Part shown: positions 40,513 through 59,598 of the stretch, piece by piece
Numbering within the stretch: position 1 is the stretch's first letter
How the letters are laid out: each line of letters begins with the position of its first letter
Source: Bacillota bacterium
Lineage (GTDB): Bacteria; Bacillota; Dethiobacteria; DTU022
Length of the DNA: 64,000 bases
NCBI GenBank assembly: GCA_012799185.1
Contig: JAAZLS010000021.1
Coordinates: 14,242-78,241, forward strand
Direction of reading: 5' to 3'
The notes under the pieces: generated by a model
What the model saw: the letters and a program-made list of their open reading frames with translations, nothing else
What the model was told of the DNA's origin: nothing
Databases searched by the model: none
Program-made: the position numbers and the translations under genes

Positions 40513-40518
40513 AAAAGG

Positions 40519-40554
40519 AAAGGGGCCGGGGTTCATCGAACCCCGGCCCCTTTT
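40519..40554. terminator. bidirectional intrinsic terminator (ggggccgggg ttcatcgaa ccccggcccc with flanking A and T runs)
   Basis: Perfect 10-bp GC stem that ends the minus-strand molybdoenzyme operon just after the beta1 stop at 40574. Confidence 0.8.
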
Positions 40555-40573
40555 CGGTATCCTTTTGGCTTGA

Positions 40574-41380
40574 TCAGGTCAAGGGGATATCGCCTAGGTT
40601 TACATCCTTCTCCGTATCGATATTCTCAAATACCTTTTTCTTGCCATCGCTCTCTATTGTCAGGTTATAGGTGCCGGTCTCCTCTAGATCCTTGAACCAA
40701 AAATCACCGAACTCGTCGGTGGTGGCGGTAGCGGTTTTGCCGTTACCGGCCAGTGTACAGGTCGCCCCGATGATAACCTCTTTTTCCACCGGGTCGTAGA
40801 CTGTACCGGCAACAAAGCGCTTCATCCTGTTAAGGTAGTAAACCCTCGGCTTGTAGCCGCCTTCGGGGTGAACCACCTCCGCCCGGGCGATTTCGTCAGC
40901 AAACTCCGACTCCTCTCCAAATTTAATTGCCTCGGTAGGGCAGGCGTCAACACAGCGCGGTACCTCCCAACCGTCATCAAGCAAATGGGCACACCCGGTG
41001 CATTTCTGGGCGATATACAGGTTTTCATTGAAATAAATCGCCCGGTAGGGACAACGATCTACACACTCCCGGCAACCGGTACATTTTTCTGGGTCTATAA
41101 TGACTAGGCCGTCATCACGGCGATAGATGGCCCCCTCAATCGGACAGTACTCAATACAGGGTGCATTCTCACAGTGCATGCAGAGATAGGGCCGGTAATC
41201 TACCTTTACCTTGGGAACAGTGCCCCGGACCTCTTCCTGCATCTTGAGCCAGAACTGGCCGGTATCCGGCTGCGGCTTGGCATAAGGGGTCCAGTCGTTG
41301 CCTACATGCTCATCCTTGCAAACAAACTGGCAGGCATAACATCCATTGCATCGGGCCAGATCGATAACAAAAACTTTCAT
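40574..41380 (-). CDS. Fe-S (3x[4Fe-4S]) beta subunit of a DMSO-reductase-family molybdoenzyme, transhydroxylase (BthL)-like, with a C-terminal transthyretin/CarboxypepD_reg-like domain
   Basis: Cys clusters CNGCYACQFVC, CMHCENAPC and CTGCRECVDRC, and a C-terminal beta-sandwich tail (GATCTLAGNG...GDFWFKDL...YNLTIESDGK). Confidence 0.8.
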   Translation of the reverse strand: MKVFVIDLARCNGCYACQFVCKDEHVGNDWTPYAKPQPDTGQFWLKMQEEVRGTVPKVKVDYRPYLCMHCENAPCIEYCPIEGAIYRRDDGLVIIDPEKCTGCRECVDRCPYRAIYFNENLYIAQKCTGCAHLLDDGWEVPRCVDACPTEAIKFGEESEFADEIARAEVVHPEGGYKPRVYYLNRMKRFVAGTVYDPVEKEVIIGATCTLAGNGKTATATTDEFGDFWFKDLEETGTYNLTIESDGKKKVFENIDTEKDVNLGDIPLT

Positions 41381-44029
41381 CTATTCGTTCCCTCCTTCTA
41401 CCCAGCCGTTAAAGTGCAACCCGGCATCAGGACAGTATTTCCGCTCGAAGGCTGCGGGGTTCTCTTCACGCCAGCGAGCCCATTCCTTCGGCTCGATCTT
41501 CTGCACATCGACCAGGTAGCCGCTGGTAGCCTGGCCGGCTGCATTCTTGGAAGATACCCCCAGGGGGCTAATAGTATTGATCGCTCCACCGCGGCAAACA
41601 TCCTTGGCAATGGGGTCGTAACGGGCCCCGTGATCCACGTAGGCCACGCCGGGCATAACTCTTTCCCAGACCCGGGCCCCACAGAGGACAATCCCTCTCT
41701 CGTTTACTATCTTGACAATCTCCCCATCCTTGATCCCCCGTTTTTCCGCCTCCTGCGGATTAATCCAAACCGGCTCATATTTATAGCCATCGGGGCCGGT
41801 TACCTTACAGGTTGGCGTCTCCCGGGTCCAGGAGATATCATCAGCCTGAGAGTGTACGCGCCAGCGGCCGTGGTTGGACATTAACAAGAGTGGGAACATG
41901 GCCGCCCGATCGCTGGATAACCGCTCATCGTGGGTAATCCCTTTTTCAACCCACTTGGGAATAGGCGGCCTCTCGTGATCGTCGGGGAAATGTTTGGCCA
42001 ACCGCTCGGAGTAAATTTCCAGTTTCCCGGTCGGGGTAGGCAGGGGATTGTTTTCCGGATCCTCATAAAATTTACGTAGGCCCGGTGTATCCTCTTCCCA
42101 ATCCTCGGCGGTAGGAAATGCATAGTACTGCTTCTCCTTGAAATCTTCCCACGAAATAAAATTACCCAGGGCCATGCTATCGAAAACCTCTTTTTGTAGG
42201 TCCTCGATGCTTTTCTCTTCGCTAAATTCTTTTTCCTTACCAAGCTTTTTAGCTACCTCCAGAACCGCCTCGTAATCACTCTTCGACTCCCCCACCGGCT
42301 TAATAGCCTGATTCAGTAGGGTTACACTTTGGAAATGAACACCCTGCCGGGTATTGGTAACGATATCGTCTACCTCCATGTTGGTATTAACCGGTAAAAT
42401 TATATCGGCCAGCAGGCAATCGTTTTCCAACCATGGATGCTGAGCTACCACACATTCAATCGAAGGATGACGAAAAGCCTCCACCGTCTTATTACCATAA
42501 TTCCAACAGGTAATACGGCAAGGGGTATCGGTCCAAATCATATGGATCTCAGTACCGCCCTTTTCCTTCTCAATCGGATAGGTGTATTTGACAAACTGAT
42601 CCTCTGGCGGCGACTCGATTCCGCCGTCACCCCAGAAGACGATGGGCGGATTAAGTATAGCGTCTTGGATCAAGGTTTTCGGTATCAACTGTTTACCCCA
42701 GCCAAAAATAGTGGAGTCGCAAGGAACCCTTAACCTTTCACTCAACGCCGTGTTAAAGAAACGGGTATCTTGAACCCCTTTCGCTCGGGGCATCCCGATA
42801 TAGGAGATCTGCCACTGGTGCACCCCCGGGCCGCCCAGGCCCTGCATGGCCAGGAGGACACATTCCAGCCTTCCCGCTTCATGAGAGTAGGGACCCCTGA
42901 TGAAAGAACCGCCAAAGTAGTGGGCAATCGAGAAGGTTTTTTCTGCCAGGTACCGGGCAAAAGCCTTAATGGTCCAAGGCGGAACCCCACATTTTTCGGA
43001 AGCCCATTCCGGTGTCTTCGGAATATTATCTTCCTCCCCCATAACATAGGCGGCCAGCTTCTCAAGGCCCACCGTATGGGTCGCCACGTAATCCTTGTCG
43101 TAAAGTCCCTCTTTTAGCCAAATATAAATAATAGCTAGCTGGAGGGCCGCATCGGTGTTGGGCAGGACCGGGATCCATTTATCGGCATGAACCGCCGCTC
43201 CATAATTTACCTCGGGGCAGACATAAATCTGTTTAATACCCGCATCGCGCCAGAAATAGCAGATCCGAGAGGCATACTGACCGGTAAAACCCCAAACCGT
43301 GGTTTCCGGGTCACAGCCCCAGAAGAGGACTGCATCGCTATGCTCCGAAATATCCTTGAGCACATTATCTGCCGGTCGCATCATGCCCTGCGAGCCCTGG
43401 CCCCAAACATGTTTCGACCCCCAGTACCAGCCCTCCCAACTATCCGGGTTTCTCACCTGCTGGGTAAACCCGCCCATCATATCAAGAAGCCGGGCCTGGT
43501 GCCCATGGGGGGTGTGAATGGTTTTACATTCGCCATGGCCATCGCCCTGGGTAAGAATCGCCAGGGGGCCATACTTCTGATGAACCCTTTTTATTTCACT
43601 GGCAATTAAATCGGTAGCCTCATCCCAGGAGATCCGCACATACTTACTTTTACCCCTATTCTGGGGGTTACGCTCCCCCTCCGGATCCCAGTCCACCCGG
43701 CGAAGGGGGTATTTAATTCGGTTGGGCGAGTAGGTTCTTTTCTTGTAAGCCAGTGAAAATGGAGATGGTAATGCCTTAAAAAGCGGTTGTAAGGTCGCGC
43801 CGTTCCGCTCAATTTTCCAGGGGTTTAGCGCCTCCCGGTCATATTTCCAATCGTAATGGAACGGCCGAACTCGAAGAATTTTACCGTCTTTTACATCAAC
43901 TGCACATTCGCCTCCACCGCCCAGCAGGCCCCCTAATGCAAGGGACCTGATGACTGTTTTATCGCCGGCGGTATCTGGCCTGGCGGCAGTAGGCTTGTTG
44001 CCGCCCCGGTTTTTTTCCTCCAACATCAT
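41381..44029 (-). CDS. molybdopterin (bis-MGD) oxidoreductase alpha subunit, pyrogallol-phloroglucinol transhydroxylase (AthL)-like. It has no N-terminal Fe-S Cys motif and no Tat signal.
   Basis: 882-aa product with DMSO-reductase-family domain order. Translationally coupled to the beta subunit (stop/start overlap at 41380/41381). Confidence 0.8.
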   Translation of the reverse strand: MMLEEKNRGGNKPTAARPDTAGDKTVIRSLALGGLLGGGGECAVDVKDGKILRVRPFHYDWKYDREALNPWKIERNGATLQPLFKALPSPFSLAYKKRTYSPNRIKYPLRRVDWDPEGERNPQNRGKSKYVRISWDEATDLIASEIKRVHQKYGPLAILTQGDGHGECKTIHTPHGHQARLLDMMGGFTQQVRNPDSWEGWYWGSKHVWGQGSQGMMRPADNVLKDISEHSDAVLFWGCDPETTVWGFTGQYASRICYFWRDAGIKQIYVCPEVNYGAAVHADKWIPVLPNTDAALQLAIIYIWLKEGLYDKDYVATHTVGLEKLAAYVMGEEDNIPKTPEWASEKCGVPPWTIKAFARYLAEKTFSIAHYFGGSFIRGPYSHEAGRLECVLLAMQGLGGPGVHQWQISYIGMPRAKGVQDTRFFNTALSERLRVPCDSTIFGWGKQLIPKTLIQDAILNPPIVFWGDGGIESPPEDQFVKYTYPIEKEKGGTEIHMIWTDTPCRITCWNYGNKTVEAFRHPSIECVVAQHPWLENDCLLADIILPVNTNMEVDDIVTNTRQGVHFQSVTLLNQAIKPVGESKSDYEAVLEVAKKLGKEKEFSEEKSIEDLQKEVFDSMALGNFISWEDFKEKQYYAFPTAEDWEEDTPGLRKFYEDPENNPLPTPTGKLEIYSERLAKHFPDDHERPPIPKWVEKGITHDERLSSDRAAMFPLLLMSNHGRWRVHSQADDISWTRETPTCKVTGPDGYKYEPVWINPQEAEKRGIKDGEIVKIVNERGIVLCGARVWERVMPGVAYVDHGARYDPIAKDVCRGGAINTISPLGVSSKNAAGQATSGYLVDVQKIEPKEWARWREENPAAFERKYCPDAGLHFNGWVEGGNE

Positions 44030-44098
44030 CCCTCACCTTCTACATATTTTTAAACTGTTCTATTTCCCATTGCCGCTCTACTTCCAATTCACATAATA

Positions 44099-44115
44099 AT
44101 GCAATTAACATGCCA
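44099..44115 (-). promoter_or_regulatory. sigma54 (-24/-12) promoter TGGCAT-gttaa-TTGCAT for the alpha1/beta1 operon
   Basis: Minus strand reads gaTGGCATgttaaTTGCATt, about 70 nt upstream of the 44029 start. Confidence 0.65.
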
Positions 44116-44332
44116 TCATTTCCCGGGGATAAAAGGTTGTCTGTTCAAGGCTAGGCCCCCCTTGAAATAATTTATCACCATCGATGGGGGCAACCATGTA
44201 AATATTAATTAACATTGTTCCACTTTGTTTAACTCAAGGTTTACCACCCGCGCCGGGTTCGATCATTTCACCGGAGAATAAACCCTACCGGGGACGCAGT
44301 GATTTTAATTATTTATGGTATAGTATTGAATA

Positions 44333-44998
44333 TTGGTAGTAAAAATACCTAACTCTAGCCGGGCGGTGATTAAAATGGATTTTATTGAAGTTTTAAAGGG
44401 AAGGCGTAGTATCAGGAGTTTTCTCCCCCAGGAAGTCCCGGAAGAAGATATCAGAGAGATTGTTGAACTGGCCACCCTGGCTCCCAGCGCAGGAAATAAA
44501 CAGGATTGGCAAACCATCGCCATCTTTAATCGGGAGATAAAACTCCAGATGAAAAAAGTAATCCAGGATAAACTGGCAACACTGGCGAAACAAGCGGGGG
44601 TTGAGAATCCTGAGGCGGTTAGCCGAAGGCGGATTAATATCTTATTTGCCGATGCCCCGGTAGCCCTGGTCATTTTGACTAAACCCTATCGCTCACTGCA
44701 GGATGAAATCCTGGTAAAATGCGGTTACACGGATCAGGAGGTCGAACGCCTGCGGATGCGACCGGAGCTGCAGACTATCGGCGGCTTCATTCAATCCCTT
44801 TTGCTAGCCGCCTACAGTTACGGCTACGGAACCTGCTGGATGGTCGCCCCCAATGTCGCCCGACCGGAGATGGAGCAGATCCTGGGCGTTAAGAAGCCCT
44901 GGTCAATCTCCGCCCTGGTAGCCCTGGGCCGTCCGGCAAAAGAACCGGGTCGCAAAATAGTGAAGCCGGTCTCCGAGGTTCTCAAAATAATAAATTAG
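44333..44998 (+). CDS. nitroreductase-family FMN oxidoreductase
   Basis: GRRSIRSF...PSAGNKQDW is the nitroreductase fold signature. Product is 221 aa. Confidence 0.8.
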   Translation: MVVKIPNSSRAVIKMDFIEVLKGRRSIRSFLPQEVPEEDIREIVELATLAPSAGNKQDWQTIAIFNREIKLQMKKVIQDKLATLAKQAGVENPEAVSRRRINILFADAPVALVILTKPYRSLQDEILVKCGYTDQEVERLRMRPELQTIGGFIQSLLLAAYSYGYGTCWMVAPNVARPEMEQILGVKKPWSISALVALGRPAKEPGRKIVKPVSEVLKIIN

Positions 44999-45026
44999 GG
45001 GTGCCCGGCGGCACCCCAGTTTTTTG
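44998..45026 (+). terminator. intrinsic terminator of the nitroreductase gene
   Basis: ggggtgcc cggc ggcacccc followed by agttttttg. Confidence 0.75.
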
Positions 45027-45061
45027 TTCGGAACTATTTACACCCTCCCCGGCGGCAACCC

Positions 45062-45859
45062 CTATTTTCCGGTTTCAAAGCGAAATTCCTGTTCTGGATC
45101 GATGAGCGCCAGAACGCGGACAATACAACCGTCCCCGCCTTCCCATCTCCAGGGGAAAGCCATGAAAAAGCATCGTTTTCCGGTAACCTTATCCAGGTCG
45201 CCCCCTACGTTTTCAATGCCGGGTATACCGCCTTTAACCATCAGGTTCTTGTGGGCATCTTCCCAAAGGGGGAAATCTACCTTTGGGTCACGGCCATATT
45301 CTTGCTTCCATTCCTCTATTAAATGGGGGTGAGTCGGGCCGAGGCCGTGATCTACCAGCTTGGTCGCCAGGGGGTGATCATTGGCCTGGCATCCATAACC
45401 CACTAATTTTATCTTTTTTTCGACCAACCAGTCAGCACCGGCACCATTAATACCACAACCATAGGCAAAATATTCATCGGTATCGGCCCATTTATGATGG
45501 AACCCGGTATTGATCATGACAATATCGCCTTCCTGAATTTTTGGCCGGGCATTTTCTAGATCTTCCGGGGTAATGATACCCCATTTTCCCTTGGGGATGG
45601 AGACAGCCACACCGGTCCCACATAACCGCCACAGGGGATAATCGCCAATACTGGGTGTATTTTCGGTTACGTGTAGCGGGGCATCCATATGGGTGGAGCG
45701 GTGCATGATCCCTTCCCAGTTTACCTCGTACAGGCCATCCTTGGCATGAAATTTCTTTACGGTAACATTGACACTGGGAGTAGAAGGCCATTCCGGCATA
45801 AATTGATGGTAGGGGTGACTTAGATTATATATTTGCAGGCTCATGTCTTCTCCTTTCAA
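45062..45859 (-). CDS. cyclase-family protein (PF04199, kynurenine-formamidase / isatin-hydrolase-like metal hydrolase)
   Basis: HRSTHMDAPLH matches the HxGTHxDxPxH signature. Product is 265 aa. Confidence 0.8.
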   Translation of the reverse strand: MKGEDMSLQIYNLSHPYHQFMPEWPSTPSVNVTVKKFHAKDGLYEVNWEGIMHRSTHMDAPLHVTENTPSIGDYPLWRLCGTGVAVSIPKGKWGIITPEDLENARPKIQEGDIVMINTGFHHKWADTDEYFAYGCGINGAGADWLVEKKIKLVGYGCQANDHPLATKLVDHGLGPTHPHLIEEWKQEYGRDPKVDFPLWEDAHKNLMVKGGIPGIENVGGDLDKVTGKRCFFMAFPWRWEGGDGCIVRVLALIDPEQEFRFETGK

Positions 45860-45868
45860 TCAAAATAT

Positions 45869-46672
45869 TTATTTACCCGGATCGATCCGGTAGCTACCGG
45901 CCGGATCGATAATCGCTACGAACCGTACCGGACAGGCGTCACCATTTCTAAATTTCCAGGGGGCGGCAACAAAGGTGGCTCTCTTCCCTAGTAAAAGATC
46001 GATATCCCCGCCTACCTGTTCAATCGTAGGGATACCGGCCTCGAGAAGGGTTTTATGGGCGATATTCCATTCGCCATGCTCTTTTTTAGGATCCAGGCCC
46101 GTAGCCTCCCGGTATTCGTCGGCCAACCTTTTCATGGTCGGCCCCCCCCGGTGGGGCCCCAGGGAGGTTGCCAGCGGATGATCAACCTGCTGGGTATCGA
46201 CCGCCACTAGCTTACACTTCCTTTCAACCAGCCACCGGGCCGCATCCCCGGTCAGACCGGGGGATTCGCCATAATACTCCAGTGAATCGGAGTACTTATG
46301 GTGCCACCCGGTAACGATAACTACAATATCTCCCGGCTGGACCGTTGCTTCATTTGCCTCCAAGTCCCCGGCAGTCACCGTTTCGTAGCTTCCCTTGGGA
46401 ATGCTAAGAACAATACCGTTACCAAAAAAACGATCCTCCGGGATTTCAGCTAGGTCCGCACCCTTTTGAACCAGGTGCAGGGGGGCATTCATATGAGTGC
46501 CCGTATGCATAGATGTATTTGTTTTCCAGGCTAAAACGCCATGTTGGGCATGTTTTACGGCCCTAAACATTTTCACATCATCCTGCCCAGGATAGGATGG
46601 TACACCATGACCCCAGGTATGACTGAGCTCCAAAAACTGTAAACCCGAATAGGGGTCGTTCACAAATGACAC
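45869..46672 (-). CDS. cyclase-family protein (PF04199), paralog of the preceding gene
   Basis: HTGTHMNAPLH motif, 267 aa, with an 8-nt gap to its paralog. Confidence 0.8.
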   Translation of the reverse strand: MSFVNDPYSGLQFLELSHTWGHGVPSYPGQDDVKMFRAVKHAQHGVLAWKTNTSMHTGTHMNAPLHLVQKGADLAEIPEDRFFGNGIVLSIPKGSYETVTAGDLEANEATVQPGDIVVIVTGWHHKYSDSLEYYGESPGLTGDAARWLVERKCKLVAVDTQQVDHPLATSLGPHRGGPTMKRLADEYREATGLDPKKEHGEWNIAHKTLLEAGIPTIEQVGGDIDLLLGKRATFVAAPWKFRNGDACPVRFVAIIDPAGSYRIDPGK

Positions 46673-46795
46673 CGTAATCCCTCCTTTTAATGAGATGGTT
46701 ATAGTCTTTTAACCTAAAAAATAATACCCCCTTATAAATGAGATAGCCTGGCCGCTAATCCGGCCACCGGGTTGCCTGCTTCGCACCAGTTATTT

Positions 46796-46812
46796 ATGCA
46801 ACATTTATGCCA
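46796..46812 (-). promoter_or_regulatory. sigma54 promoter TGGCAT-aaatg-TTGCAT for the tandem cyclase operon
   Basis: Minus strand reads gTGGCATaaatgTTGCATa, about 125 nt upstream of the 46672 start. Confidence 0.65.
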
Positions 46813-46844
46813 CCCGGGGGGCAACATCATTTAATAAGGGTAAA

Positions 46845-46870
46845 GGGCGGTACCATAACCGGTACCGCCC
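46845..46870 (-). terminator. hairpin (gggcggtacc ataacc ggtaccgccc), probable terminator of the alpha2/beta2 operon
   Basis: 10-bp perfect stem located 40 nt after the beta2 stop. The T-tract on the minus strand is weak (tttaccctta). Confidence 0.5.
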
Positions 46871-46911
46871 CATTGCAACCCCTTTTTAAAAACCGGTTGG
46901 CCACCCCGACT

Positions 46912-47766
46912 TTATACGGGGTCCAACATAACCTCACCCACGTTAATGCTCTTATGGGTAAATAGTTCCAGTTGGCGGGGCTGATATCCCTCATGCTCAA
47001 CAGTGAGAATATAACGGGTCTTCTTGCCAAGCCCCTCAAATTCAAAATCACCGTAGATATCGGAGCGGGTCTCCATGCTCACCCCGTTGCCGGCAAGGGA
47101 TACCTTTACCCCCGCGGCACATTCCCCCTGGTTATCTTTAAATACCACCTCGCCGGCAATAAAGTATCGCGGGATCCCCGCATACTTAATTAGAGGTTCG
47201 GTCCCAAACTCCGGATAGAGTACCTCGGATTTGGTTTCGGCCACCAGCCGGGAGACCTCACTGTCAGGATCATCCAGATCCCCAAACACCAGGGCGCCGG
47301 TAGGACAGGCCTCGACACATTTCGGCTCTTTTTCTCCCTGGTCCAACATATGGGCACAGAGGGTACACTTCTGAGGTAGCTGCTTCTCTTCGTTCCAGAA
47401 TATAACCCGGTAGGGGCAGCTGTTTACAATCTGCCTTTGACCCCGGGCCTTTACCGGATCGATAATCACAATCCCGTCCTCCCGCCGGTAAACTGCACCC
47501 TCCTTGGCCATCTCGATACAGGGTGCCTCCTGGCAGTGCATACAGGGCAGCGGGATATAATCAAGCTTGGGCTTGGGATACTCTCCCCGTTCTATTTGCT
47601 TGATCTGCATCCAGTAGTGGTCCTTTAAGGGATGACCCTCAGAATAGGGGGGATAATCATTATCATAAAATTCATCCCGGCAGGCTAAAAAGCAATTATA
47701 ACAGCCGGTGCACTTGTTAACATCGATAAAAATCGTATAACGCGCTATTTTAATCACTCCTCCCAC
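46912..47766 (-). CDS. Fe-S beta subunit, transhydroxylase small-subunit (BthL)-like, with C-terminal transthyretin-like domain (paralog 2)
   Basis: CTGCYNCFLAC, CMHCQEAPC and CTLCAHMLD ferredoxin clusters, plus a C-terminal GECAAGVKVSLAGNG...GDFEFEGL...YILTVEHEGY tail. Confidence 0.85.
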   Translation of the reverse strand: MGGVIKIARYTIFIDVNKCTGCYNCFLACRDEFYDNDYPPYSEGHPLKDHYWMQIKQIERGEYPKPKLDYIPLPCMHCQEAPCIEMAKEGAVYRREDGIVIIDPVKARGQRQIVNSCPYRVIFWNEEKQLPQKCTLCAHMLDQGEKEPKCVEACPTGALVFGDLDDPDSEVSRLVAETKSEVLYPEFGTEPLIKYAGIPRYFIAGEVVFKDNQGECAAGVKVSLAGNGVSMETRSDIYGDFEFEGLGKKTRYILTVEHEGYQPRQLELFTHKSINVGEVMLDPV

Positions 47767-50294
47767 TTTTCAATTTCAATCAAACAAGAATTAGGAGTCA
47801 TCCCGGGCGCATGCCTGGAAAGCAACCGCGAAGAGGTTAACAGGTTAACGCAACCGCCCCTATCCATCGAATCGGGCTTACCGGGTATTAGGGGATCATA
47901 CTTGGCCGATGAACCGTAGCTATGGATAATCCCGGGGCGAACCCATCCGGTAACCACGGCTACACAGAGCACCCCGCCCCGGTCGTTATAGAGACGAACA
48001 ATATCACCGTTATTAATCCCCCTTACCTCCGCATCCCGGGGATTAATACGGGCCGGCCACCAGTGGTAACCATCCTTTTTTATACGGTGGACCGGGATAT
48101 CATTCAGCCAGTCGGTATGTTTATCATAATGGGTGTGGAAGGAAAACCGGGGATGGGGAGAGAGCAGCTGTAACGGATATTTTTTAAATAGATCACTATG
48201 ATGTCCCTCCCAGCTAGGAATATAGCGGGGTGAGATCGGCCGTTCCCAATCTTCCGGAAAATGTTTTTTCAAGCTCTCCGATACAAATTCAATTTTACCG
48301 CTATAGGTGCCGAGTTCGTGGCCTTTCTCCGTATTCCGTTTCGGATTGGAAGGATCGGGGGTGTCACAGGCCCGCCCCTCGGCAAACCAGCGCAAACCGG
48401 GGGTCGGTTTATAGCCTTCTTTAATATTGATTACATGGTAACCTTTTCGATTAAAGGTCTCCCAATCGACCAGCTTGGGCAGGTCGGATAGTTCAAAGAA
48501 AGCCCGACACCAATCCAGCTCGCTCTTACCGCCATCGGTAAATTCATCTTTTAATCCAAGACGCTCGGCCAACAGGGCGAAAATCTGATAATCCGACTTG
48601 GATTCCCAGAGCGGTTCGATACATTTCTGTTGCCTGACAATTACCCGGTAGTTGCTTCCACTACTGGCATGCCCAGTATAGCCCCCACAGGCACCCCACT
48701 CGGCCAGATCATCCCGTTCAAAGTTACTACAGGCCGGTAAAATAACATCGGCCATCCGGGTCTCGCTATTGAACCAGACATCCTGGTTTACAACGAATTC
48801 CAGCTTGGGGCTCTGGTACATTTTGACCCATTTGGAGGTATCGAGCATGGTACCGATAAAAGAGCCCCCGTAACGGTAGAATAGCTTGATCTCGGAGCAT
48901 CCCTCCGCCGGGTACTCAAAGTATTCAAACTGCTGCTCCAGGGAGCCGCCGCAGAATCCGGCCCCATGCCAGCTCAGGGGTGGGTCAAGGATCGCATCGG
49001 GTAAGGTAAGACGGTACAGCCGCTGCCTATTTTTATTAACCGGTATAAAATTAGCGGCCTTGGTCGCAGAAGAGATCTTGCCCTGGGGATCGGCATAGGC
49101 TGGGAAAAAGTAGTCGGTATCTGAGGGCGCCCCCATGGTGGTCCCCCATATGGACCGGCCGGGCTTACCGAGCCCCTGCATAGCCTGGAGCAGGACCATC
49201 ATGCGGGCCCACTCGGTCGCATAGGCCTGGCGACAGGCACCGCCCTCGCCACCGCGGGCACCGCCGGAAAGGATAGTCCTTTTTTCCGCCCATTCCCGGG
49301 CCAGAGCCCGAATCACCCGGGCCTTCACCCCCGATTCTTCCTCCGCCCACTCCGGGGTCTTGGGCTGCCCGTCTATCTCCCCCAATATATATTTTTTAAA
49401 CTCATCGAACCCGATAGTCCGGTTTTCAATATATTCCCGATCGTAACGCCCCTCGGTAATCCATACATAAGCAATCGCCATCGCCAGGCAGGTATCGGTA
49501 CCGATACGCGGGGCAATCCACTTGCCGCCCATAACAGCGGCGGTAAAATTATAAAAGGGATCGATAAAAACAGTCTTAACCCCTTTCTTTTTGAGCCACT
49601 CCCGCCAGAGGGCCGACTCCTGGCCGGTATAGGTCCCGCGGGTTGAATCGGGATCATTAGACCAGAGGACAATCATCTCGGCGTTCTTTAAAGCATCCTG
49701 CAACATATCGTACGGTTCCGGCATTCCCAACCGCCAATAAAAACCATAGGTATGGGTGGCCCCCCAATGCCAGCCTTCCCAACTATCCGGATTATCCAAA
49801 ACCGGGGTAAAATCCAGCAGGTTCATAAAACGCATAAAGGAGCCATGCTTATAACCCACTATCCCCCAATTATGGTGGGAAGAGGTTAACCCGCTAATCG
49901 CCGAACCACCATAACTCTCCTTAACCCGTTTCAGTTCGCCGGCAACCAGGTCCAGCGCCTCCTCCCAGGAGATACGCACATAGCCTGATTTGCCCCTATT
50001 CTGAGGGTTGCGCTCCCCCTCCGGGTTAAAATCAACCCGCTTCATCGGATATTTAATGCGTTCATCGGAGTGAATCCTCCGCCTCTCCGCGTGAACATAA
50101 GGCGCCACGGCAAATTTTTTCGGTGCAGTAAACTTATGTTCACCGGCCTCAATGGTCCATGGCTTTAAATCTTTCTCTTCGGCAACCAGGGGCCTGATCC
50201 GCACTACCTTGCCATCCCTTACGTAGACGGAGACGGGACCGGCGTTGGTGCAATTCGTAAAGACCTGTTCAGTCATTATCCATATCCTCCTCAC
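47754..50294 (-). CDS. molybdopterin oxidoreductase alpha subunit, transhydroxylase large-subunit (AthL)-like (paralog 2); start probably MTEQVFTNC
   Basis: 846-aa product with no Cys-rich N-terminus or Tat motif. Overlaps the beta2 start by 13 nt, indicating coupling. Confidence 0.85.
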   Translation of the reverse strand: MRRIWIMTEQVFTNCTNAGPVSVYVRDGKVVRIRPLVAEEKDLKPWTIEAGEHKFTAPKKFAVAPYVHAERRRIHSDERIKYPMKRVDFNPEGERNPQNRGKSGYVRISWEEALDLVAGELKRVKESYGGSAISGLTSSHHNWGIVGYKHGSFMRFMNLLDFTPVLDNPDSWEGWHWGATHTYGFYWRLGMPEPYDMLQDALKNAEMIVLWSNDPDSTRGTYTGQESALWREWLKKKGVKTVFIDPFYNFTAAVMGGKWIAPRIGTDTCLAMAIAYVWITEGRYDREYIENRTIGFDEFKKYILGEIDGQPKTPEWAEEESGVKARVIRALAREWAEKRTILSGGARGGEGGACRQAYATEWARMMVLLQAMQGLGKPGRSIWGTTMGAPSDTDYFFPAYADPQGKISSATKAANFIPVNKNRQRLYRLTLPDAILDPPLSWHGAGFCGGSLEQQFEYFEYPAEGCSEIKLFYRYGGSFIGTMLDTSKWVKMYQSPKLEFVVNQDVWFNSETRMADVILPACSNFERDDLAEWGACGGYTGHASSGSNYRVIVRQQKCIEPLWESKSDYQIFALLAERLGLKDEFTDGGKSELDWCRAFFELSDLPKLVDWETFNRKGYHVINIKEGYKPTPGLRWFAEGRACDTPDPSNPKRNTEKGHELGTYSGKIEFVSESLKKHFPEDWERPISPRYIPSWEGHHSDLFKKYPLQLLSPHPRFSFHTHYDKHTDWLNDIPVHRIKKDGYHWWPARINPRDAEVRGINNGDIVRLYNDRGGVLCVAVVTGWVRPGIIHSYGSSAKYDPLIPGKPDSMDRGGCVNLLTSSRLLSRHAPGMTPNSCLIEIEKWEE

Positions 50295-50942: not shown

Positions 50943-51446
50943 GTGTGGCTAAAAATACTAACCTGGTTGGACATATTCACGGAGAAAGCAAGCAATATTT
51001 TCCATTATATTGGCTCCGTTATCTTGGCAGTAATGATGTTTTTTACATTTGCCGATGTAGCAGGACGTTATTTTCTCAAACAACCAATCAAGGGATCCTT
51101 TGAAGTTACCGAGTATATGCTGGCTATTTTGATCTCTTTCTCCATTGCCTATTGCGGGGTAAAAAAAGGTCATATTCATGTAGACGTACTAACAATGCGC
51201 CTACCGCAGCGGGTTCAGGACATCTTAAATTCTATTACCCAACCGCTGGGCTTTATCTTGATCTTCTTAACCACATGGCATACCGTCCGCTTTGCCCTTA
51301 GTTTACACGCTTCCGGTATGTCCTCTACTGTTCTTGTAATACCGAAGTACCCCTTTGTTTTTATTGCCGCCGTCGGCCTGGGGTTATATTCACTGGTGCT
51401 ACTAAAAGATTTTATGGAATCCCTTTATAAGGCGGTGAAGCGATGA
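50943..51446 (+). CDS. dctQ: TRAP transporter small permease (DctQ)
   Basis: 167-aa product with 4 TM segments and typical DctQ N-terminal context. Overlaps dctM by 4 nt. Confidence 0.85.
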   Translation: MWLKILTWLDIFTEKASNIFHYIGSVILAVMMFFTFADVAGRYFLKQPIKGSFEVTEYMLAILISFSIAYCGVKKGHIHVDVLTMRLPQRVQDILNSITQPLGFILIFLTTWHTVRFALSLHASGMSSTVLVIPKYPFVFIAAVGLGLYSLVLLKDFMESLYKAVKR

Positions 51447-52744
51447 CACCAATTGTAGTCGGTATAATCGGTATCCTCATTTTATTTGTGTTACTGTTCC
51501 TGGGCATGAATGTGGGATTGGCCTTACTTTTGATCGGCTTTGTCGGTCAGGCTTATATTGCCGGGTTTGCACCTACCTTTGGCGGGCTAAGGATGATCCC
51601 CTACTCTACCTTCGCCTCCTACAGCTTAAGTGTTATCCCATTATTCATCTTGATGGGTAATTTGGCTTTCCATTCCGGGCTAAGCCGCGATCTTTACCTT
51701 GCGGCCCGCAACTGGTTGGGACGGCTACGGGGCGGTTTAGCCATGGCCTCGGTAGCGGCATGCGCCGCTTTCGCTGCCTGCAGCGGTTCCAGTGTAGCTA
51801 CCGCGGCTACATTAGGGAAGATAGCGTTGCCGGAGATGAAAAGGTATAATTACGATGACGGGCTGGCCACCGGTACCCTGGCCGCCGGCGGCACCATGGG
51901 TATCTTGATCCCCCCCAGCGTAATCCTCATTATATATGGTATCCTGACCGAGCAGTCCATCGGGAAACTTTTTTTAGCCGGTGTTATCCCCGGCATACTG
52001 GAAGCTGTCTTCTATATAATAACAATTTATATCTTAACTACTCTCTACCCATCGTGGGGACCGCCCGGACCTAAAACTACCGTAAGAGAAAAATTTATTT
52101 CGCTAAGGGATACCTGGGGTTTTATTGCCCTGTTCCTACTGGTTATCGGCGGGATCTACATGGGTGTTTTCAGCCCCACCGAAGCCGGGGGTATCGGTGC
52201 ATTCGGTACCTTTATATTCTGCCTATTAAGGAGAAGGCTCCGTTGGGATACCTTTAAGGAGAGCCTGATTGACTCGGGCCAGACCGCAGCCATGATCTTT
52301 TTGATCATGCTGGGAGCTAACTTTTTCGGCCACTTCCTGGCGGTCACCGGTCTCCCCGCCGCCCTCACCGCCTCCCTGGCCACCCTCGCCGTTAGCCGGT
52401 ATGTGATCCTCTTGCTTGTATTTATATTCTACCTTATCCTGGGCTGCGTTATGGACTCCATGGCCATGATTCTAATTACCGTGCCCATCTTCTTCCCGTT
52501 GGCATTGGAACTAGGTTTTAACCCTATCTGGTTCGGGATCTTCATCACTCGGGTAACCGAGATTGGCATGGTTACTCCCCCGGTGGGGATGAACCTTTAC
52601 GTCATCAAGGGGGTAGCCAAGGATGTACCTATGAGCACCCTGTTCCGGGGAGTGTTCCCCTTCGTAATCGCCGATATCCTCCATGTTGCCTTAATTACAG
52701 CACTCCCCATACTAGCCACATTTTTACCCAGCATGATGAGGTAA
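51443..52744 (+). CDS. dctM: TRAP transporter large permease (DctM)
   Basis: 433-aa product with 12 TM segments and DctM-family conservation. Confidence 0.9.
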   Translation: MTPIVVGIIGILILFVLLFLGMNVGLALLLIGFVGQAYIAGFAPTFGGLRMIPYSTFASYSLSVIPLFILMGNLAFHSGLSRDLYLAARNWLGRLRGGLAMASVAACAAFAACSGSSVATAATLGKIALPEMKRYNYDDGLATGTLAAGGTMGILIPPSVILIIYGILTEQSIGKLFLAGVIPGILEAVFYIITIYILTTLYPSWGPPGPKTTVREKFISLRDTWGFIALFLLVIGGIYMGVFSPTEAGGIGAFGTFIFCLLRRRLRWDTFKESLIDSGQTAAMIFLIMLGANFFGHFLAVTGLPAALTASLATLAVSRYVILLLVFIFYLILGCVMDSMAMILITVPIFFPLALELGFNPIWFGIFITRVTEIGMVTPPVGMNLYVIKGVAKDVPMSTLFRGVFPFVIADILHVALITALPILATFLPSMMR

Positions 52745-52821: not shown

Positions 52822-53595
52822 TTACCCGATAGCGGTCAGGCCTCCATCTACGTAGATAATTTGGCCGGTCACAAAATCGGAGGCCGCCGAGGCCAGGAAG
52901 ATAGCCGCACCAACCATATCTTCGGCTTTCCCCAGGCGGCCCAAGGGAATATTCCTCAGGTATTTTTCGGTTCGCCCCGGTTCTTTCATCTGCTTCTCTG
53001 TTAACTTGGTAGCTATTAAAGCCGGGCCGATCGCATTAACATTTACATTAAATGGTGCCCACTCCGCCGCCAGACAGCGAGTAATCATATCTACCGCCCC
53101 CTTGGTGCTGCAATAGGCACTATTCCCGCCGGCATTGGCCCGAATTCCCCGGACCGATGATAGGTTGATAACCTTACCCGAGCGCCTTTTAGTCATTATC
53201 CGGCCAAATTGTTTACAGCTGATCATTGTTCCCATGGAGTTAACATTATGTAACAGCTGCCAATCCTCCATTGATAGGTCAAGACCCTTTGCCTTCTTAT
53301 TGGCCCCATGGGCATTAACTAAAATATCTACCGTTCCGTACCGGGCAACGATTTCACCAACCAGCCGGATTACATCCTCCTCATCGGTTATATCCACCCC
53401 CATGGCTGTCGCCTCCCCACCGGTCTCCCTACCTATCGCCGCTGCCCGCAGTTTCAAGTTTTCAATATTTCTACTGGCCATGACCAGCCGGGCACCGTGC
53501 TCCACGAAACCGGTAGCGATCGCCCCCCCGATACCGCCGGCACCGCCGATTACCACCGCCACCTTACCACTTAAATCAAATCTTTTTTTCATCAA
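52822..53595 (-). CDS. SDR-family NAD(P)-dependent oxidoreductase (candidate phloroglucinol reductase)
   Basis: GGAGGIGGAIA Rossmann motif and YCSTK (YxxxK) catalytic motif. Product is 257 aa. Confidence 0.85.
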   Translation of the reverse strand: MMKKRFDLSGKVAVVIGGAGGIGGAIATGFVEHGARLVMASRNIENLKLRAAAIGRETGGEATAMGVDITDEEDVIRLVGEIVARYGTVDILVNAHGANKKAKGLDLSMEDWQLLHNVNSMGTMISCKQFGRIMTKRRSGKVINLSSVRGIRANAGGNSAYCSTKGAVDMITRCLAAEWAPFNVNVNAIGPALIATKLTEKQMKEPGRTEKYLRNIPLGRLGKAEDMVGAAIFLASAASDFVTGQIIYVDGGLTAIG

Positions 53596-53627: not shown

Positions 53628-53960
53628 TTAAGGCTCTACTATAATCACCAGGACCGTTGCCGGGTTAACACCCCGAACTTTAATCGCCCGCTCTTCACCG
53701 GGAGCAATATAGAGTAGATCCCCCTCTTCCAAGAGGTGCTCCTCTTCTGGTCCGGCTACCGTCAACGCCCCGGAGAGAAGGTAGTAGACCCGCTCCTTAG
53801 CAGAGCTCGACATTTCGGCTCCACCGTTTGGCAGGAAATGGGATATCGATACCGTCAGGCGGCTGGCCGCGGTTTCCCGATCTACCTTTTTTAGACCCCA
53901 CATATGGAAATGCCGTTTGGCCTCGTAGGGTGTACCCTTATTGGCCTTAACTGTTTTCAT
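53628..53960 (-). CDS. cupin-domain protein
   Basis: 110-aa product with a cupin beta-barrel pattern (HMWGLKK...YYLLSGALTV...LLYIAPGEERAIK). Confidence 0.7.
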   Translation of the reverse strand: MKTVKANKGTPYEAKRHFHMWGLKKVDRETAASRLTVSISHFLPNGGAEMSSSAKERVYYLLSGALTVAGPEEEHLLEEGDLLYIAPGEERAIKVRGVNPATVLVIIVEP

Positions 53961-54064: not shown

Positions 54065-55351
54065 TCAGGTCACCCGGTCCCGGGAACCCGGAACGTTACC
54101 GTTATCCTTTATTTGGGAAACAATGATAGCGTTAACAACTAACAGAGCCATGATCAAGATTAGTATAAATTCGTAACGGCCCCAATAATCGTACGTGACC
54201 CCGCCTAAGTAGGAACTGGCGGCGGCCCCCAGATGATGGCATACCGTAACCAGGCCAAATACTATCCCTACCGATTCCTTGGTAAACATTTGGGTACATA
54301 AAGATCCCGTTGGGGCAATAGTAGCCATCTCTGTTATGCCGAAGGAGAGGGCAAAGATAAACAACAGAACCGGTGAGCGGGCATAGAGCAGAAGGATAAA
54401 AGTTAAACTCCTAAAACCATAGAGCAGGCGAAGTAGTTTCCCCCGATCAATCTGGTCAGCCAGGTAACCGGCCCCAACGGTTCCCAAGAGGCTACTTGCC
54501 GATAACAGGGTAAAAACAAGGGCAATCGTGTACGGTGTAAAGCCCCTCCCCTCGGCAAAGGGGATAAAGTGGGTCCCGGTAAAACCTATATCGGTAAAAC
54601 CACAAATAAAATAGGAGATTGATAACAACCAGAATACCCGGTTTCTGAAAATAACGCCCAGGGAGATCGGAACTTTTTCCTTCTGCACCCCGGCCCCGGC
54701 GGGAGTCTCTCCATCGCCATAGGGCGCCAGGTTAATATCGGCCGGTTTTGATCTGATAAATAAGGCCAGCAGGGGAGTTAAACCAAAGGTGACAATTTGC
54801 CCTAAAAGCAGCACCGCATAACGCCATCCATGGGCTTCAACGAGAAAAATGGTAGCCGGCACTAGAATTAAGGTCCCCACTGCCTGGCCCGAGGCAATTA
54901 TGCCCAGTACAAATCCCCTTTTTTTCGCAAACCAATGGGTAACCAGGGAGGCAGCCACCACGCTCGAACATCCGGCCGAGCCGCTAGGAAAAAACACCCC
55001 TAGTAAAATGATCAACTGCCAAAACCCGGTAACGGCAGAGGAAACCATTAATGAGGCCCCGATTAAAAGGGAGCCCAGGGCGAATATAATCCGTCCCCCG
55101 TATTGATCGGCAAGCTTTCCGGCCAGCGGTTGGGCAACCGCAAAAGTAATCCAACCCAGCAGGGGAATGGCGGCCGCAGCGGTACGGCTGATTAAAAATT
55201 CATTTTCCCAAGAAATAAAATAGGCCCCTAGAGCACCCCGTAGACCAAAATTTATAAGAGCTACAAATAACAAACCCACTAGAACCCAGCCGTAATGGAA
55301 CGGGAATTTATAAGAAAATAGTCTATCCCTCACCCGATATAGCCACCCCAC
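54065..55351 (-). CDS. MFS transporter
   Basis: 428-aa product with 12 TM segments. Confidence 0.8.
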   Translation of the reverse strand: MGWLYRVRDRLFSYKFPFHYGWVLVGLLFVALINFGLRGALGAYFISWENEFLISRTAAAAIPLLGWITFAVAQPLAGKLADQYGGRIIFALGSLLIGASLMVSSAVTGFWQLIILLGVFFPSGSAGCSSVVAASLVTHWFAKKRGFVLGIIASGQAVGTLILVPATIFLVEAHGWRYAVLLLGQIVTFGLTPLLALFIRSKPADINLAPYGDGETPAGAGVQKEKVPISLGVIFRNRVFWLLSISYFICGFTDIGFTGTHFIPFAEGRGFTPYTIALVFTLLSASSLLGTVGAGYLADQIDRGKLLRLLYGFRSLTFILLLYARSPVLLFIFALSFGITEMATIAPTGSLCTQMFTKESVGIVFGLVTVCHHLGAAASSYLGGVTYDYWGRYEFILILIMALLVVNAIIVSQIKDNGNVPGSRDRVT

Positions 55352-55856: not shown

Positions 55857-56951
55857 ATGAAGCGATCCCTTTTTTTAACACTGCTTGTGGTGACATTAGT
55901 CGTGTTAATGTCGGTCGTTGGCTGTACCCCCACCGTAGAGAACGGAGAGGAAAACGGAGACGCTGAACCGGTAGAGAAGATAACATTAAAATGGGTCGAC
56001 GAACATGCCACCACGGCCTGGGAGGCTAAAATGGCGGCCATCCCATTTCTACAGGAGATTGAAGATGTCACCGACGGCAGGGTCGAAGTTGATCCCTACT
56101 GGGCTAATACCCTCCTAGAGACCGTGGATATCTGGCCCGGCATCGCCGCCGGCACGGCTGATTTCGGCTGGTGTTTCATGGGTGTATACGGCGGAATGAC
56201 CACCCTGGCTGATGTGGTCACATTACCGTTCATGCCTTTCGAAAGTGCGGAACATGGCAGTGCAGTGCTCTGGACCCTTCTGAATGAGTTCCCGAACTTA
56301 GCAGAACAATTTGGTGAAAACCACATTCTCCTGACCTGGACCTCCGACCCCTATATTTTGGCAACCACCAAGAAACAGGTTAAAACCATGGAAGACATCA
56401 AGGGCCTGAAGATCAGAGCCATGGGCGGACCCCCCACCGAGATGGCCGAGTTGCTGGGGGCTGTTCCCCAAAGTATGCCCATGCCCGATACCTATACGAA
56501 CCTACAGACGGGTGTCCTAGACGGCATATTTACCCCCTGGGAAGCAATTATTAGCTGGCGGCATCACGAGGTTTGCCCTTATGTTACCACGATCCCCGCC
56601 CATAGCGTTTACTTTACCATTCCATTCAACCATGACAAGTGGAACAGCCTGCCCGATGATATTCGGGAGGCGCTGGAATCGGTAGGCGGAATGAAAGGCT
56701 CCCGGTTCTGGGGCAAACAGAAGTTTGATAGTGCCAGGCCGGAGGTGCTCCGGATGTGTGAGGAAGAGGGAATCGAGATTGAATTCTACGATCCCACCCC
56801 CGAAGAACTACTCCAGTGGAGAGAGGCAGCCGGCTTGCCCCTTTGGGACAAGTGGGTTGCCGACAGAGAGGCCGATGGATACGATGAGGCCCAGGAGATA
56901 TTGGATCGATGCCTAGAGCTGGCCGAGGCCGGACTGGCCGGGATGGAATAG
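55857..56951 (+). CDS. dctP: TRAP transporter substrate-binding lipoprotein (DctP family)
   Basis: Lipoprotein signal LMSVVGC and a 364-aa DctP fold. Confidence 0.85.
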   Translation: MKRSLFLTLLVVTLVVLMSVVGCTPTVENGEENGDAEPVEKITLKWVDEHATTAWEAKMAAIPFLQEIEDVTDGRVEVDPYWANTLLETVDIWPGIAAGTADFGWCFMGVYGGMTTLADVVTLPFMPFESAEHGSAVLWTLLNEFPNLAEQFGENHILLTWTSDPYILATTKKQVKTMEDIKGLKIRAMGGPPTEMAELLGAVPQSMPMPDTYTNLQTGVLDGIFTPWEAIISWRHHEVCPYVTTIPAHSVYFTIPFNHDKWNSLPDDIREALESVGGMKGSRFWGKQKFDSARPEVLRMCEEEGIEIEFYDPTPEELLQWREAAGLPLWDKWVADREADGYDEAQEILDRCLELAEAGLAGME

Positions 56952-58369: not shown

Positions 58370-58439
58370 GGGTTGCGGTTGAAAGTTTAGTTTAAAATGA
58401 TATAATAATTGTCAACCAATTCTATACTGCTCCGAACCT

Positions 58440-58608
58440 TGCCACCTAACGCCGCGTCTTATGGGCCATGGTTCAAGGTCTGGGCCGGGGGAGAAATCCC
58501 CCTGCCTCCCGCATTTGGAAAGGAGGACGCCAGTGAAACCGCGTTTTCTTAAACATGGAGGCGCGGTTGTTTTTTTGGCCCCAAAATCTAAGAAAGAAGG
58601 GATAAGAA
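58440..58608 (+). promoter_or_regulatory. structured leader with intrinsic terminator (58537-58577) upstream of moaA; candidate Moco riboswitch
   Basis: GC-rich leader gggccgggggagaaatccccctgcctcccgcatttggaaaggaggacgcc, followed by aaccgcg...cgcggtt plus gttttttttg, directly before the moaA GTG start. The class assignment comes from context (upstream of moaA), not from a verified consensus match. Confidence 0.4.
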
Positions 58609-59598
58609 GTGGAGCTAATCGATTCCCAGGGACGGGTTCACGATTACTTGCGCATCTCGGTAACCGATCGTTGCAATTTGCGCTGTCTGTACTGCATGGG
58701 GCCGGAAGGGATAACCCAAATCCCCCACCAGGAGATCCTTTCTTACGAGGAGATAATCCAGGTCATAAAAACGGCGACGCCCCTGGGCATCCGGCGAATC
58801 CGCATTACCGGGGGGGAACCGTTAACCCGCAAGGGATTGCCTCGCCTGCTGGAACAGATATCCGAGATTCCCGCAATTAAAGACCTCTCCATGACTACCA
58901 ACGGCATACTGCTCCCACGCTATGCCGCAAGCCTGAAGGCGGCCGGCCTAAAACGGGTCAATATTAGCCTGGACTCCTTAAAACCGGAAAAATACCGGGC
59001 AATTACCCGTAAGGGCGACCTCTCCCAGGCCTTACGCGGGATCGATACCGCCCTGGAGCTGGGCCTAACCCCTGTTAAGATAAACACTGTCCTGATCAAA
59101 GGATTCAATGATGATGAGGTGCCGGAGCTCATAAAACTGGTCCAGGAAAAACCGGTGCACCTGCGCTTCATCGAATATATGCCTATTGGAGACCATGATC
59201 ACAACTACAGCCAACACTATCTACCCCTAAGTTTTGTGCAGGAGGCGGCCCGGGCCGCCGGACTGCCCCTCACTCCCACCGCCCCCCGGACGGGAGCCGG
59301 CCCGGCGGAATGGTTTACTATCCCCGGGGGACAGGGCACAGTCGGGCTAATTCACCCTATTAGCCGGCATTATTGCCACCACTGTAATCGCCTCCGCCTG
59401 ACTCCCGATGGTTATATCAAGACCTGCCTCTACTGGGAGCATGAGTACCCGGTTCGCCCCTGTATTAATGACCCGGAGGCGCTAACCCGGTTACTACTAA
59501 CCGCGGTTAAGGAGAAACCGGCACGCCACCTGATGCAACAAGAGACCGGCGCCAAGACCCCCCGGGCCCGGCGCTCCATGTCTAAAACCGGAGGATAA
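58609..59598 (+). CDS. moaA: GTP 3',8-cyclase MoaA
   Basis: ISVTDRCNLRCLYCMG radical-SAM motif and C-terminal Cys motif (CHHCNRLRLTPDGYIKTC). Confidence 0.9.
   Translation: MELIDSQGRVHDYLRISVTDRCNLRCLYCMGPEGITQIPHQEILSYEEIIQVIKTATPLGIRRIRITGGEPLTRKGLPRLLEQISEIPAIKDLSMTTNGILLPRYAASLKAAGLKRVNISLDSLKPEKYRAITRKGDLSQALRGIDTALELGLTPVKINTVLIKGFNDDEVPELIKLVQEKPVHLRFIEYMPIGDHDHNYSQHYLPLSFVQEAARAAGLPLTPTAPRTGAGPAEWFTIPGGQGTVGLIHPISRHYCHHCNRLRLTPDGYIKTCLYWEHEYPVRPCINDPEALTRLLLTAVKEKPARHLMQQETGAKTPRARRSMSKTGG

Follow-up and report, generated by a model that had tools for sequence, protein, structure and literature searches.

The 64-kb window analysed here is the whole stretch of 64,000 nucleotides from positions 14,242 to 78,241 of contig JAAZLS010000021.1 (assembly GCA_012799185.1), from a Bacillota bacterium of the Dethiobacteria; all gene calls and features below refer to it. 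It carries two gene pairs encoding molybdoenzymes related to AthL/BthL, Pelobacter acidigallici's pyrogallol-phloroglucinol transhydroxylase (PDB 4V4C; EC 1.97.1.2), with large subunits that contain bis(molybdopterin guanine dinucleotide) (bis-MGD). All four open reading frames (ORFs) are on the minus strand. They are real genes, with exactly the sizes and positions given in the original prediction, an earlier reading of the sequence that proposed two paralogous transhydroxylase-like pairs at this locus.

40574..41380, minus strand: beta1, Fe-S subunit of 268 aa with 16 Cys in four groups and a C-terminal transthyretin-like domain
41381..44029, minus strand: alpha1, bis-MGD large subunit of 882 aa, divergent AthL-like, member of the 'A1' clade
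46912..47766, minus strand: beta2, BthL-type Fe-S subunit of 284 aa with 12 Cys and a transthyretin-like domain
47754..50294, minus strand: alpha2, AthL-type large subunit of 846 aa, member of the 'A2' clade, 49% identical to AthL

Translation of alpha2 probably begins at Met7 (position 50276). The ATG of beta1 abuts the alpha1 stop codon, and the beta2 start, a non-ATG codon, overlaps the end of alpha2; each pair therefore appears to be translationally coupled.

Two designs within one enzyme family

Both large subunits found AthL (4v4c_A) as their best match among solved structures, in end-to-end alignments (E=1e-274 for alpha2 and E=2e-123 for alpha1). Both small subunits found BthL (4v4c_B) in the same way (E=2e-62 for beta2 and E=2e-57 for beta1), with alignments reaching their last residues. 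The AthL/BthL architecture proposed for both pairs was thereby borne out for all four proteins, and the Pfam domain AhtL-like_1st is present in both alphas. The pairs are paralogous in that they belong to the same family, but they are distant from one another: alpha1 and alpha2 are 35% identical, and alpha1 is 34% identical to AthL. No N-terminal CxxCx(2-4)C motif (for the Fe-S cluster FS0) or RRxFL-type motif (for twin-arginine translocation, Tat) was found in alpha1, alpha2 or 120 clade relatives of each, in agreement with the original prediction. Both alphas are proteins of the DMSO-reductase family, and their ORFs are the longest possible.

We compared these matches with an alternative in which alpha1/beta1 has nothing to do with polyphenols and is, for instance, a reductase of the cytoplasm that acts on S-oxides, N-oxides or in some other oxo transfer, brought next to alpha2/beta2 only by horizontal transfer or shared cofactor needs. 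The best NCBIfam models for the alphas are indeed bisC, dmsA and torA. Their scores, however, are far under the curated cut-offs (for TIGR00509, 364 bits for alpha1 and 377 bits for alpha2, against 1017 bits), which places neither protein among the S-/N-oxide reductases, and alpha1 matched AthL with 417 bits but TorA with 249 bits. The dimethyl sulfoxide, trimethylamine N-oxide and biotin-sulfoxide reductases DorA, TorA and BisC are Ser-ligated bis-MGD enzymes lacking FS0 and are the next-best solved relatives (~230-280 bits); unlike the enzymes of the window they have a single subunit and no Fe-S partner.

Large-subunit residues were followed in an alignment of 338 sequences, made of 120 database relatives per window protein, homologues from the fetched loci and a reconstructed AthL. 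The molybdenum-ligand motif Asp174-Ser175-Trp176 (NPDSWEGW) and His144 were invariant in 207 A1 and 127 A2 sequences, as had been expected of the ligating Ser. Tyr152, Arg153, Trp354, Tyr404, Phe468 and Tyr560 reportedly line the transhydroxylase pocket and are said to serve in binding pyrogallol and cosubstrate and in acid/base catalysis (structural work of Messerschmidt and colleagues in 2004). Residue types at all of these pocket positions agree with the reconstructed AthL sequence. The A2 clade retains H144, H145, W147, Y152, D174, S175, W176, C358, R359, Y404, F468 and Y560 and has two fixed pocket changes, R153K and W354E. The A1 clade keeps H144, D174, S175, W176 and R359 only. It has Thr at 152, Pro at 153, Gly at 354 and Gly or Ala at 468, and the segments bearing Tyr404 and the Cys557-Tyr560 loop are deleted; a signature of its own, DGHGECK, stands beside the conserved His. 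The AthL-type pocket is thus largely present in alpha2 and absent from alpha1, and the expected conservation of the substrate pocket held for alpha2, save the two changes, but failed for alpha1, with its five AthL residues.

The small subunits differ in a parallel manner. All four CxxCxxCxxxCP groups are complete in beta1, whose 16 Cys predict four [4Fe-4S] sites. As in BthL, beta2 has 12 Cys: group II is short of its last Cys and group III of its first three. The betas partnering A1 subunits had 16 Cys in 38/38 cases examined, and those partnering A2 subunits had 12 in 6/6 (beta2 included), with the same four Cys absent as in BthL. The three ferredoxin Cys clusters that had been ascribed to both betas are therefore a feature of beta2 and not of beta1. 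In NarH and DmsB the site furthest from molybdenum is the cluster that talks to an external partner. By analogy, the site missing from beta2 and BthL would be this distal cluster; the transhydroxylase type would therefore have a truncated wire and the A1 type a complete one.

Pfam family PF13620 (CarboxypepD_reg) matched the C-terminus of both betas. An AlphaFold2 (AF2) model of beta1 residues 186-268 had seven strands and a mean confidence (pLDDT) of 91.7. Foldseek placed 4v4c_B first for this model (TM-score 0.83, root-mean-square deviation 2.1 Å), followed by the transthyretin-like domain of human carboxypeptidase D (TM-score 0.72), with 5-hydroxyisourate hydrolases also among the matches. 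The fold assignment comes from the domain-only model, the full-length beta1 model, built on a two-sequence alignment, being poor (pLDDT 51). By family match and model, both betas end in a transthyretin-like domain, as had been proposed. Neither a different C-terminal fold, nor a Cys or selenocysteine molybdenum ligand, nor an overlooked FS0 motif was found, the three outcomes named beforehand as counting against the original prediction.

Both pairs have in common with AthL/BthL the alpha/beta composition, a cytoplasmic bis-MGD subunit without FS0 or Tat signal, the Asp-Ser-Trp ligand with His144, and a ferredoxin-type small subunit that carries the beta-sandwich. The alpha2/beta2 pair further shares Tyr152, Tyr404, Phe468, Tyr560 and the 12-Cys pattern, and differs in its 49% identity, R153K and W354E, while alpha1/beta1, at 34% identity, differs by 16 Cys and by the absence of Tyr152, Arg153, Trp354, Tyr404, Phe468 and the Cys557/Tyr560 loop.

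Relatives of alpha1 at 65-78% identity were found in Dehalococcoidia, Thermoleophilia and other Actinomycetota, Desulfobacterota, Acidobacteriota and a few Firmicutes, all of them from metagenome-assembled genomes. The alpha2 clade is equally large (72-80% identity). In a search of 1.84 billion cluster representatives, 701 clusters were recovered at E<1e-30. The clusters nearest alpha1 outside A1 are 41-48% identical to it, and most of them carry a Tat signal, often accompanied by a lipobox and a linker rich in Thr and Val. A neighbour-joining tree nested A1 among mostly Tat-exported clades and put AthL and A2 on a separate cytoplasmic branch. These sequences define A1 as a large, well-conserved, cytoplasmic clade of distinct design. 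No characterised A1-type enzyme, tetrahydroxybenzene enzyme or hydroxyhydroquinone isomerase was found in the literature searched.

Several genomes have multiple AthL-like operons, and two such operons per genome were described in Chloroflexi by Hug et al. 2013 (PMC3971608). Duplication of AthL-like operons within a genome is therefore not new, and it lends itself to a view of alpha1/beta1 as a redundant isoenzyme or a decaying transhydroxylase copy with no distinct role. We give this view almost no credence. Identity between alpha1 and alpha2 is just 35%, and A1 proteins are 65-78% identical across phyla, with the molybdenum-ligand motif invariant and all 16 Cys of their partners retained; the conservation of A1 across phyla argues for purifying selection on a distinct design.

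The original prediction had also offered a resorcinol-hydroxylase-like second enzyme. Resorcinol hydroxylase RhLS (RehLS) of Aromatoleum (Azoarcus) anaerobium belongs to the same family, with a cytoplasmic large subunit and a Ser ligand, and carries out net oxidative phenol hydroxylation with water, the type of chemistry that we propose below for alpha1/beta1. The RhL comparison was made with its first 400 residues only, taken from the supplement of PMC7327174. Over these residues RhL was 58% identical to AthL, 52% to alpha2 and 38% to alpha1, which puts it on the AthL/A2 side by sequence and not with alpha1. The suggestion thus fares better in kind, as a redox enzyme, than in kinship. The only family member known as a redox hydroxylase thus falls with AthL and A2, and identity alone should be used with caution as a guide to function. 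The genes btdLS and bqdLMS of the oxidative hydroxyhydroquinone pathway were not found in the window.

Pocket, clusters and tree together bear on whether both pairs are cosubstrate-dependent transhydroxylases that differ in isomer specificity and act in sequence, from hydroxyhydroquinone through tetrahydroxybenzenes to phloroglucinol. Transfers of this kind are reportedly known from extracts of Pelobacter massiliensis, and the two pairs do form one architectural family with the same Ser/Asp/His core. Against two transhydroxylases stand the lack of Tyr404, Tyr560, Arg153, Trp354 and Phe468 in alpha1, the fourth cluster, strictly conserved in A1 betas, for which a redox-neutral transferase has no evident need, and the branching of A1 with Tat-exported, presumably redox, enzymes. 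The prediction of two like-for-like transhydroxylases was not upheld on these three counts: pocket loss in alpha1, a four-cluster beta and mostly Tat-exported kin.

Pathway neighbours and recurrent co-location

The following features surround the two pairs:

40517..40555, no strand: strong, GC-rich hairpin with an 18 bp stem just downstream of beta1; probable terminator of the alpha1-beta1 unit
44333..44998, plus strand: nitroreductase-family flavoprotein gene, divergent from alpha1; the real gene of the alpha1-cycB gap
44998..45017, no strand: terminator-like, bidirectional hairpin in the interval from the nitroreductase gene to cycB; divides the alpha2 operon and the alpha1 unit
45062..45859, minus strand: cycB, cyclase family, 32% identical over its full length to the Clostridium scatologenes enzyme CsDPGC; HxxTHxDAPxH metal motif retained
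45869..46672, minus strand: cycA, cyclase family, 43% identical to cycB and 30% to CsDPGC; a metal-binding Asp is replaced by Asn
50943..52744, plus strand: membrane components DctQ and DctM of a TRAP transporter, upstream of alpha2
52822..53595, minus strand: short-chain dehydrogenase/reductase (SDR), 50-54% identical to the SDR behind alpha2-type genes in other genomes
53628..53960, minus strand: cupin of 110 aa, orthologue of the cupin between beta and SDR in alpha2-type operons
54065..55351, minus strand: MFS transporter, upstream of cupin and SDR on the same strand
55857..56951, plus strand: TRAP solute-binding protein DctP, on the upstream side
58418..58541, plus strand: molybdenum-cofactor (Moco) riboswitch (RF01055, 62.7 bits), ahead of Moco genes
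58609..61555, plus strand: Moco biosynthesis genes (moaA, a mobB-moaC fusion, and a protein with MOSC and MoCF_biosynth domains), adjoining the molybdoenzyme island

Judging by the two terminator-like hairpins (44998-45017 and 40517-40555), alpha2-beta2-cycA-cycB and alpha1-beta1 are probably transcribed as separate units. The island as a whole (40574-58369) looks horizontally assembled, judging from the affinities of its proteins: the nearest relatives of alpha1 are from Dehalococcoidia and Thermoleophilia (75-78%), and those of alpha2, cycA and cycB from Desulfobacterota (75-83%). In other Firmicutes, the alpha1-type proteins covered by the scan reached only 55-63% identity.

Both cyclase-family proteins aligned over their full length (E=1e-36 to 1e-44) with CsDPGC, the dihydrophloroglucinol cyclohydrolase (DPGC) of Clostridium scatologenes (Zhou et al. 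2023, PMC10470551). CsDPGC is one protein of 312 aa, whereas the window has two adjacent paralogues of ~265 aa, one with the Asp to Asn change. The Trp-Pro-Tyr substrate motif of DPGC is partly kept: cycB retains the Trp, and the Tyr is absent from both. Such cyclase genes were always paired and adjacent, at ~43% identity, also in the fetched loci L087 (3169-4810) and L088 (14728-16344). This pairing hints at a heteromer in which one subunit is catalytic and the other altered, and points to a two-subunit form of dihydrophloroglucinol cyclohydrolase. The other members of the DPGC pathway neighbourhood (PGR, TfD and TAL) were seen in related loci but not inside the window; elsewhere the cyclase homologues sit, as in C. 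scatologenes, with SDR, HADH and BKACE genes.

In a Desulfobacter chromosome and on a 630-kb metagenome contig the alpha2-type operon runs alpha-beta-cupin-SDR-(cyclase-cyclase)-ATP-grasp/CoA-ligase-enoyl-CoA hydratase (ECH)-DUF35-thiolase. The cupin, SDR, cycA and cycB of the window are orthologous to the Desulfobacter cluster, with 50-83% identity, and the SDR is a candidate phloroglucinol reductase. Pathway neighbours of this kind were present in 24/80 metagenomic alpha2-type loci. The genes behind alpha2 homologues fall into either an HADH/BKACE set or a CoA-ligase/ECH/DUF35/thiolase set. HADH and BKACE correspond to TfD and TAL of the C. scatologenes phloroglucinol pathway (PMC10470551). 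The ATP-grasp/ADP-forming CoA ligase, enoyl-CoA hydratase, DUF35 protein and thiolase would fit the CoA-dependent route of Pelobacter acidigallici, for whose genes a 2021 review gives 'no information available'. The two lower pathways are represented by L087 (13366-19309), L088 (13530-21485), L091, L092, L094 and L098 on the one hand and by L124, L129, L140, L153 and L160 on the other. The 110-aa cupin is conserved between beta and SDR in alpha2-type operons (L087 13366-13698, L088 13530-13862). No decarboxylase gene was seen in the cupin-containing alpha2-type clusters, though TRAP transporters of the carboxylate type are present, and no gallate decarboxylase-type gene was seen in the window.

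We scored co-location of A1- and A2-type genes in fetched loci with short flanks, and all frequencies are therefore lower bounds. Nine of 80 genomic alpha1-type loci had an alpha2-type or AthL-like gene within 10 kb, and 2/3 alpha2-type contigs viewed in detail had an alpha1-type pair next door. Conversely, an A1 gene lay in the flank of 14/80 metagenomic A2 loci (8/29 for loci of at least 13 kb), six of which share a divergent layout with an IclR gene in a gap of ~1.1 kb. A1 and A2 occur together in Desulfobacterota, Actinomycetota and the present Firmicute. Four loci (L036, L053, L049 and L067) have A1 next to the cyclase pair, cupin and SDR, and their flanks contain no A2 gene. A1 genes adjoin TRAP transporters in ~15/80 loci, and tandem sets reach three paralogues.

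This recurrence has a bearing on two of the alternatives introduced above. Co-location with A2, the cyclase pair, cupin and SDR across phyla goes beyond expectation for unrelated families within 10 kb and speaks against an oxo-transfer reductase. The closest Dehalococcoidales gene pairs are in favour of one, since their neighbours are housekeeping genes and an HD-GYP protein, with no aromatic-pathway genes; on balance we hold this alternative to be very unlikely. The repeated, probably co-regulated co-location of A1 and A2 can also be read for two transhydroxylases, as can clusters with three A1-type paralogues and one A2-type gene, which suit substrate specialisation. An additional transhydroxylating activity, reportedly seen by Brune, Schnell and Schink in 1992 solely in hydroxyhydroquinone-grown cells, was also counted in its favour. 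With the pocket, cluster and tree differences set against these points, we regard a second transhydroxylase as unlikely.

Clusters with several paralogues are seen in two Desulfospira chromosomes from metagenomes (L055, L059), where ~20 kb holds three alpha1-type and one alpha2-type large subunits, with genes for a TRAP binding protein and a universal stress protein in between. Such an arrangement indicates that the alpha1-type family diversified within one cluster.

Function of the two pairs and annotation of their relatives

Established are the structures of the genes, their family, the patterns of residues and Cys, the fold and the recurrent co-location; from these we infer catalytic assignments, electron flow and substrate as follows. 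The remainder of the window is spore-former housekeeping DNA (SpoIIP, HrcA-GrpE-DnaK-DnaJ, CdaA-GlmM-GlmS), and identical proteins were found on short contigs from biogas fermenters. We read the locus as the upper portion of a phloroglucinol-pathway island for anaerobic polyphenol metabolism, carried by a spore-forming Firmicute of biogas reactors. Because of its pocket residues and operon context, alpha2/beta2 is probably a pyrogallol-to-phloroglucinol transhydroxylase-type enzyme. It would be co-transcribed with the cyclohydrolase-like pair cycA/cycB and would work with the nearby SDR and cupin.

For alpha1/beta1 we favour, with a probability of roughly 55%, an enzyme that hydroxylates or dehydroxylates a related polyhydroxy-aromatic with a net transfer of two electrons and is tied by regulation and pathway to the transhydroxylase. 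This reading is adopted because the second-phenol side of the pocket is lost, the exit cluster is present and the exported kin are presumably redox enzymes. The substrate could be a benzene or benzoate with several hydroxyl groups, such as hydroxyhydroquinone, a tetrahydroxybenzene or an acid of the gallate type. Its phenolic oxygen would be bound by the retained Mo-Ser/Asp/His core of A1, and electrons would pass through the four-cluster wire of beta1 to or from an external carrier, so that alpha1/beta1 would feed or support the transhydroxylase/phloroglucinol route. The exit cluster of A1 betas may have been either regained or never lost.

Several observations weigh against this assignment of the two pairs. 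No A1-A2 partner was present within the fetched flanks in ~70/80 A1 loci and in most A2 loci, and no conserved electron partner was found next to A1 genes among the loci examined. BKACE, HADH and thiolase genes were looked for in the 64-kb window and none was found; the lower phloroglucinol pathway is absent there. A three-cluster beta need not exclude redox turnover, nor need a four-cluster beta prove it. The residues lost in alpha1 are ones that we take to form the second-phenol side of the pocket. Finally, alpha2 resembles the hydroxylase RhL (52% over 400 aa) at least as much as it does AthL (49%), and its designation as a transhydroxylase therefore rests on the pocket residues and context.

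A more specific form of the redox assignment makes alpha1/beta1 a 'primer' or 'recycler', a water-dependent enzyme that would make or consume 1,2,3,5-tetrahydroxybenzene through its four-cluster beta. The reactions would be pyrogallol + H2O <-> tetrahydroxybenzene + 2[H], or tetrahydroxybenzene + 2[H] -> phloroglucinol. If true, this would explain the in-vivo origin of the obligatory cosubstrate as well as the A1-type genes that alone front phloroglucinol-pathway genes; we consider it a decidedly long shot. As a variant, alpha1/beta1 could be the hydroxyhydroquinone-specific activity of Pelobacter massiliensis.

In soils, sediments, guts and digesters without oxygen, the breakdown of gallate, tannins and flavonoids converges on phloroglucinol. 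Metagenomic AthL-like genes, notably those of Dehalococcoidia, are routinely annotated as 'pyrogallol hydroxytransferase' and taken as evidence of pyrogallol fermentation. A large share of these genes is of the A1 design, with four clusters, a remodelled pocket and neither Tyr404 nor Tyr560, and such annotations probably over-call transhydroxylase. The recurrent and apparently co-regulated A1-A2 pairing offers a candidate for the in-vivo source of tetrahydroxybenzene and for the enzymes behind the conversion of hydroxyhydroquinone to phloroglucinol. Gene candidates also emerge for a two-subunit dihydrophloroglucinol cyclohydrolase and for the CoA-dependent lower pathway. The literature searched contained no description of one AthL-like type as a distinct four-cluster design with a remodelled pocket, of the recurrent pairing of this design with a transhydroxylase-type operon, or of the cyclohydrolase as two paralogous subunits.

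Remaining features of the window and of related loci

The nitroreductase divergent from alpha1 could be a species-specific electron partner; a nitroreductase gene was not conserved near alpha1 homologues elsewhere. A second nitroreductase-family flavoprotein gene lies at 18383-18919 on the minus strand, and a second MFS gene is present on the upstream side of the alpha2 island. Two minus-strand ORFs were rejected as genes. The one at 44305-44673 (122 aa) had no family match and overlaps the called nitroreductase gene, and the one at 50558-50995 had no family match and a low-complexity translation.

Directly downstream of beta1, past the strong hairpin, lies an AmmeMemoRadiSam system (37865-40288, minus strand) consisting of an AMMECR1 and LigB/Memo fusion of 452 aa and its radical SAM partner (TIGR04337). 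A functional link between these genes and alpha1/beta1 was rejected on account of the terminator between them and the lack of co-occurrence in 80 loci; the adjacency is probably coincidental.

In three loci of Desulfobulbales type (L035, L049 and L067), whose family names were read by eye and not by profile search, a GntR gene splits two divergent units. One unit has an IscA-like/Cys-rich gene ahead of an alpha1-type gene with its beta, and the other has FAH-family, SnoaL-like, LigB-like and BKACE genes, in presumed strict anaerobes.

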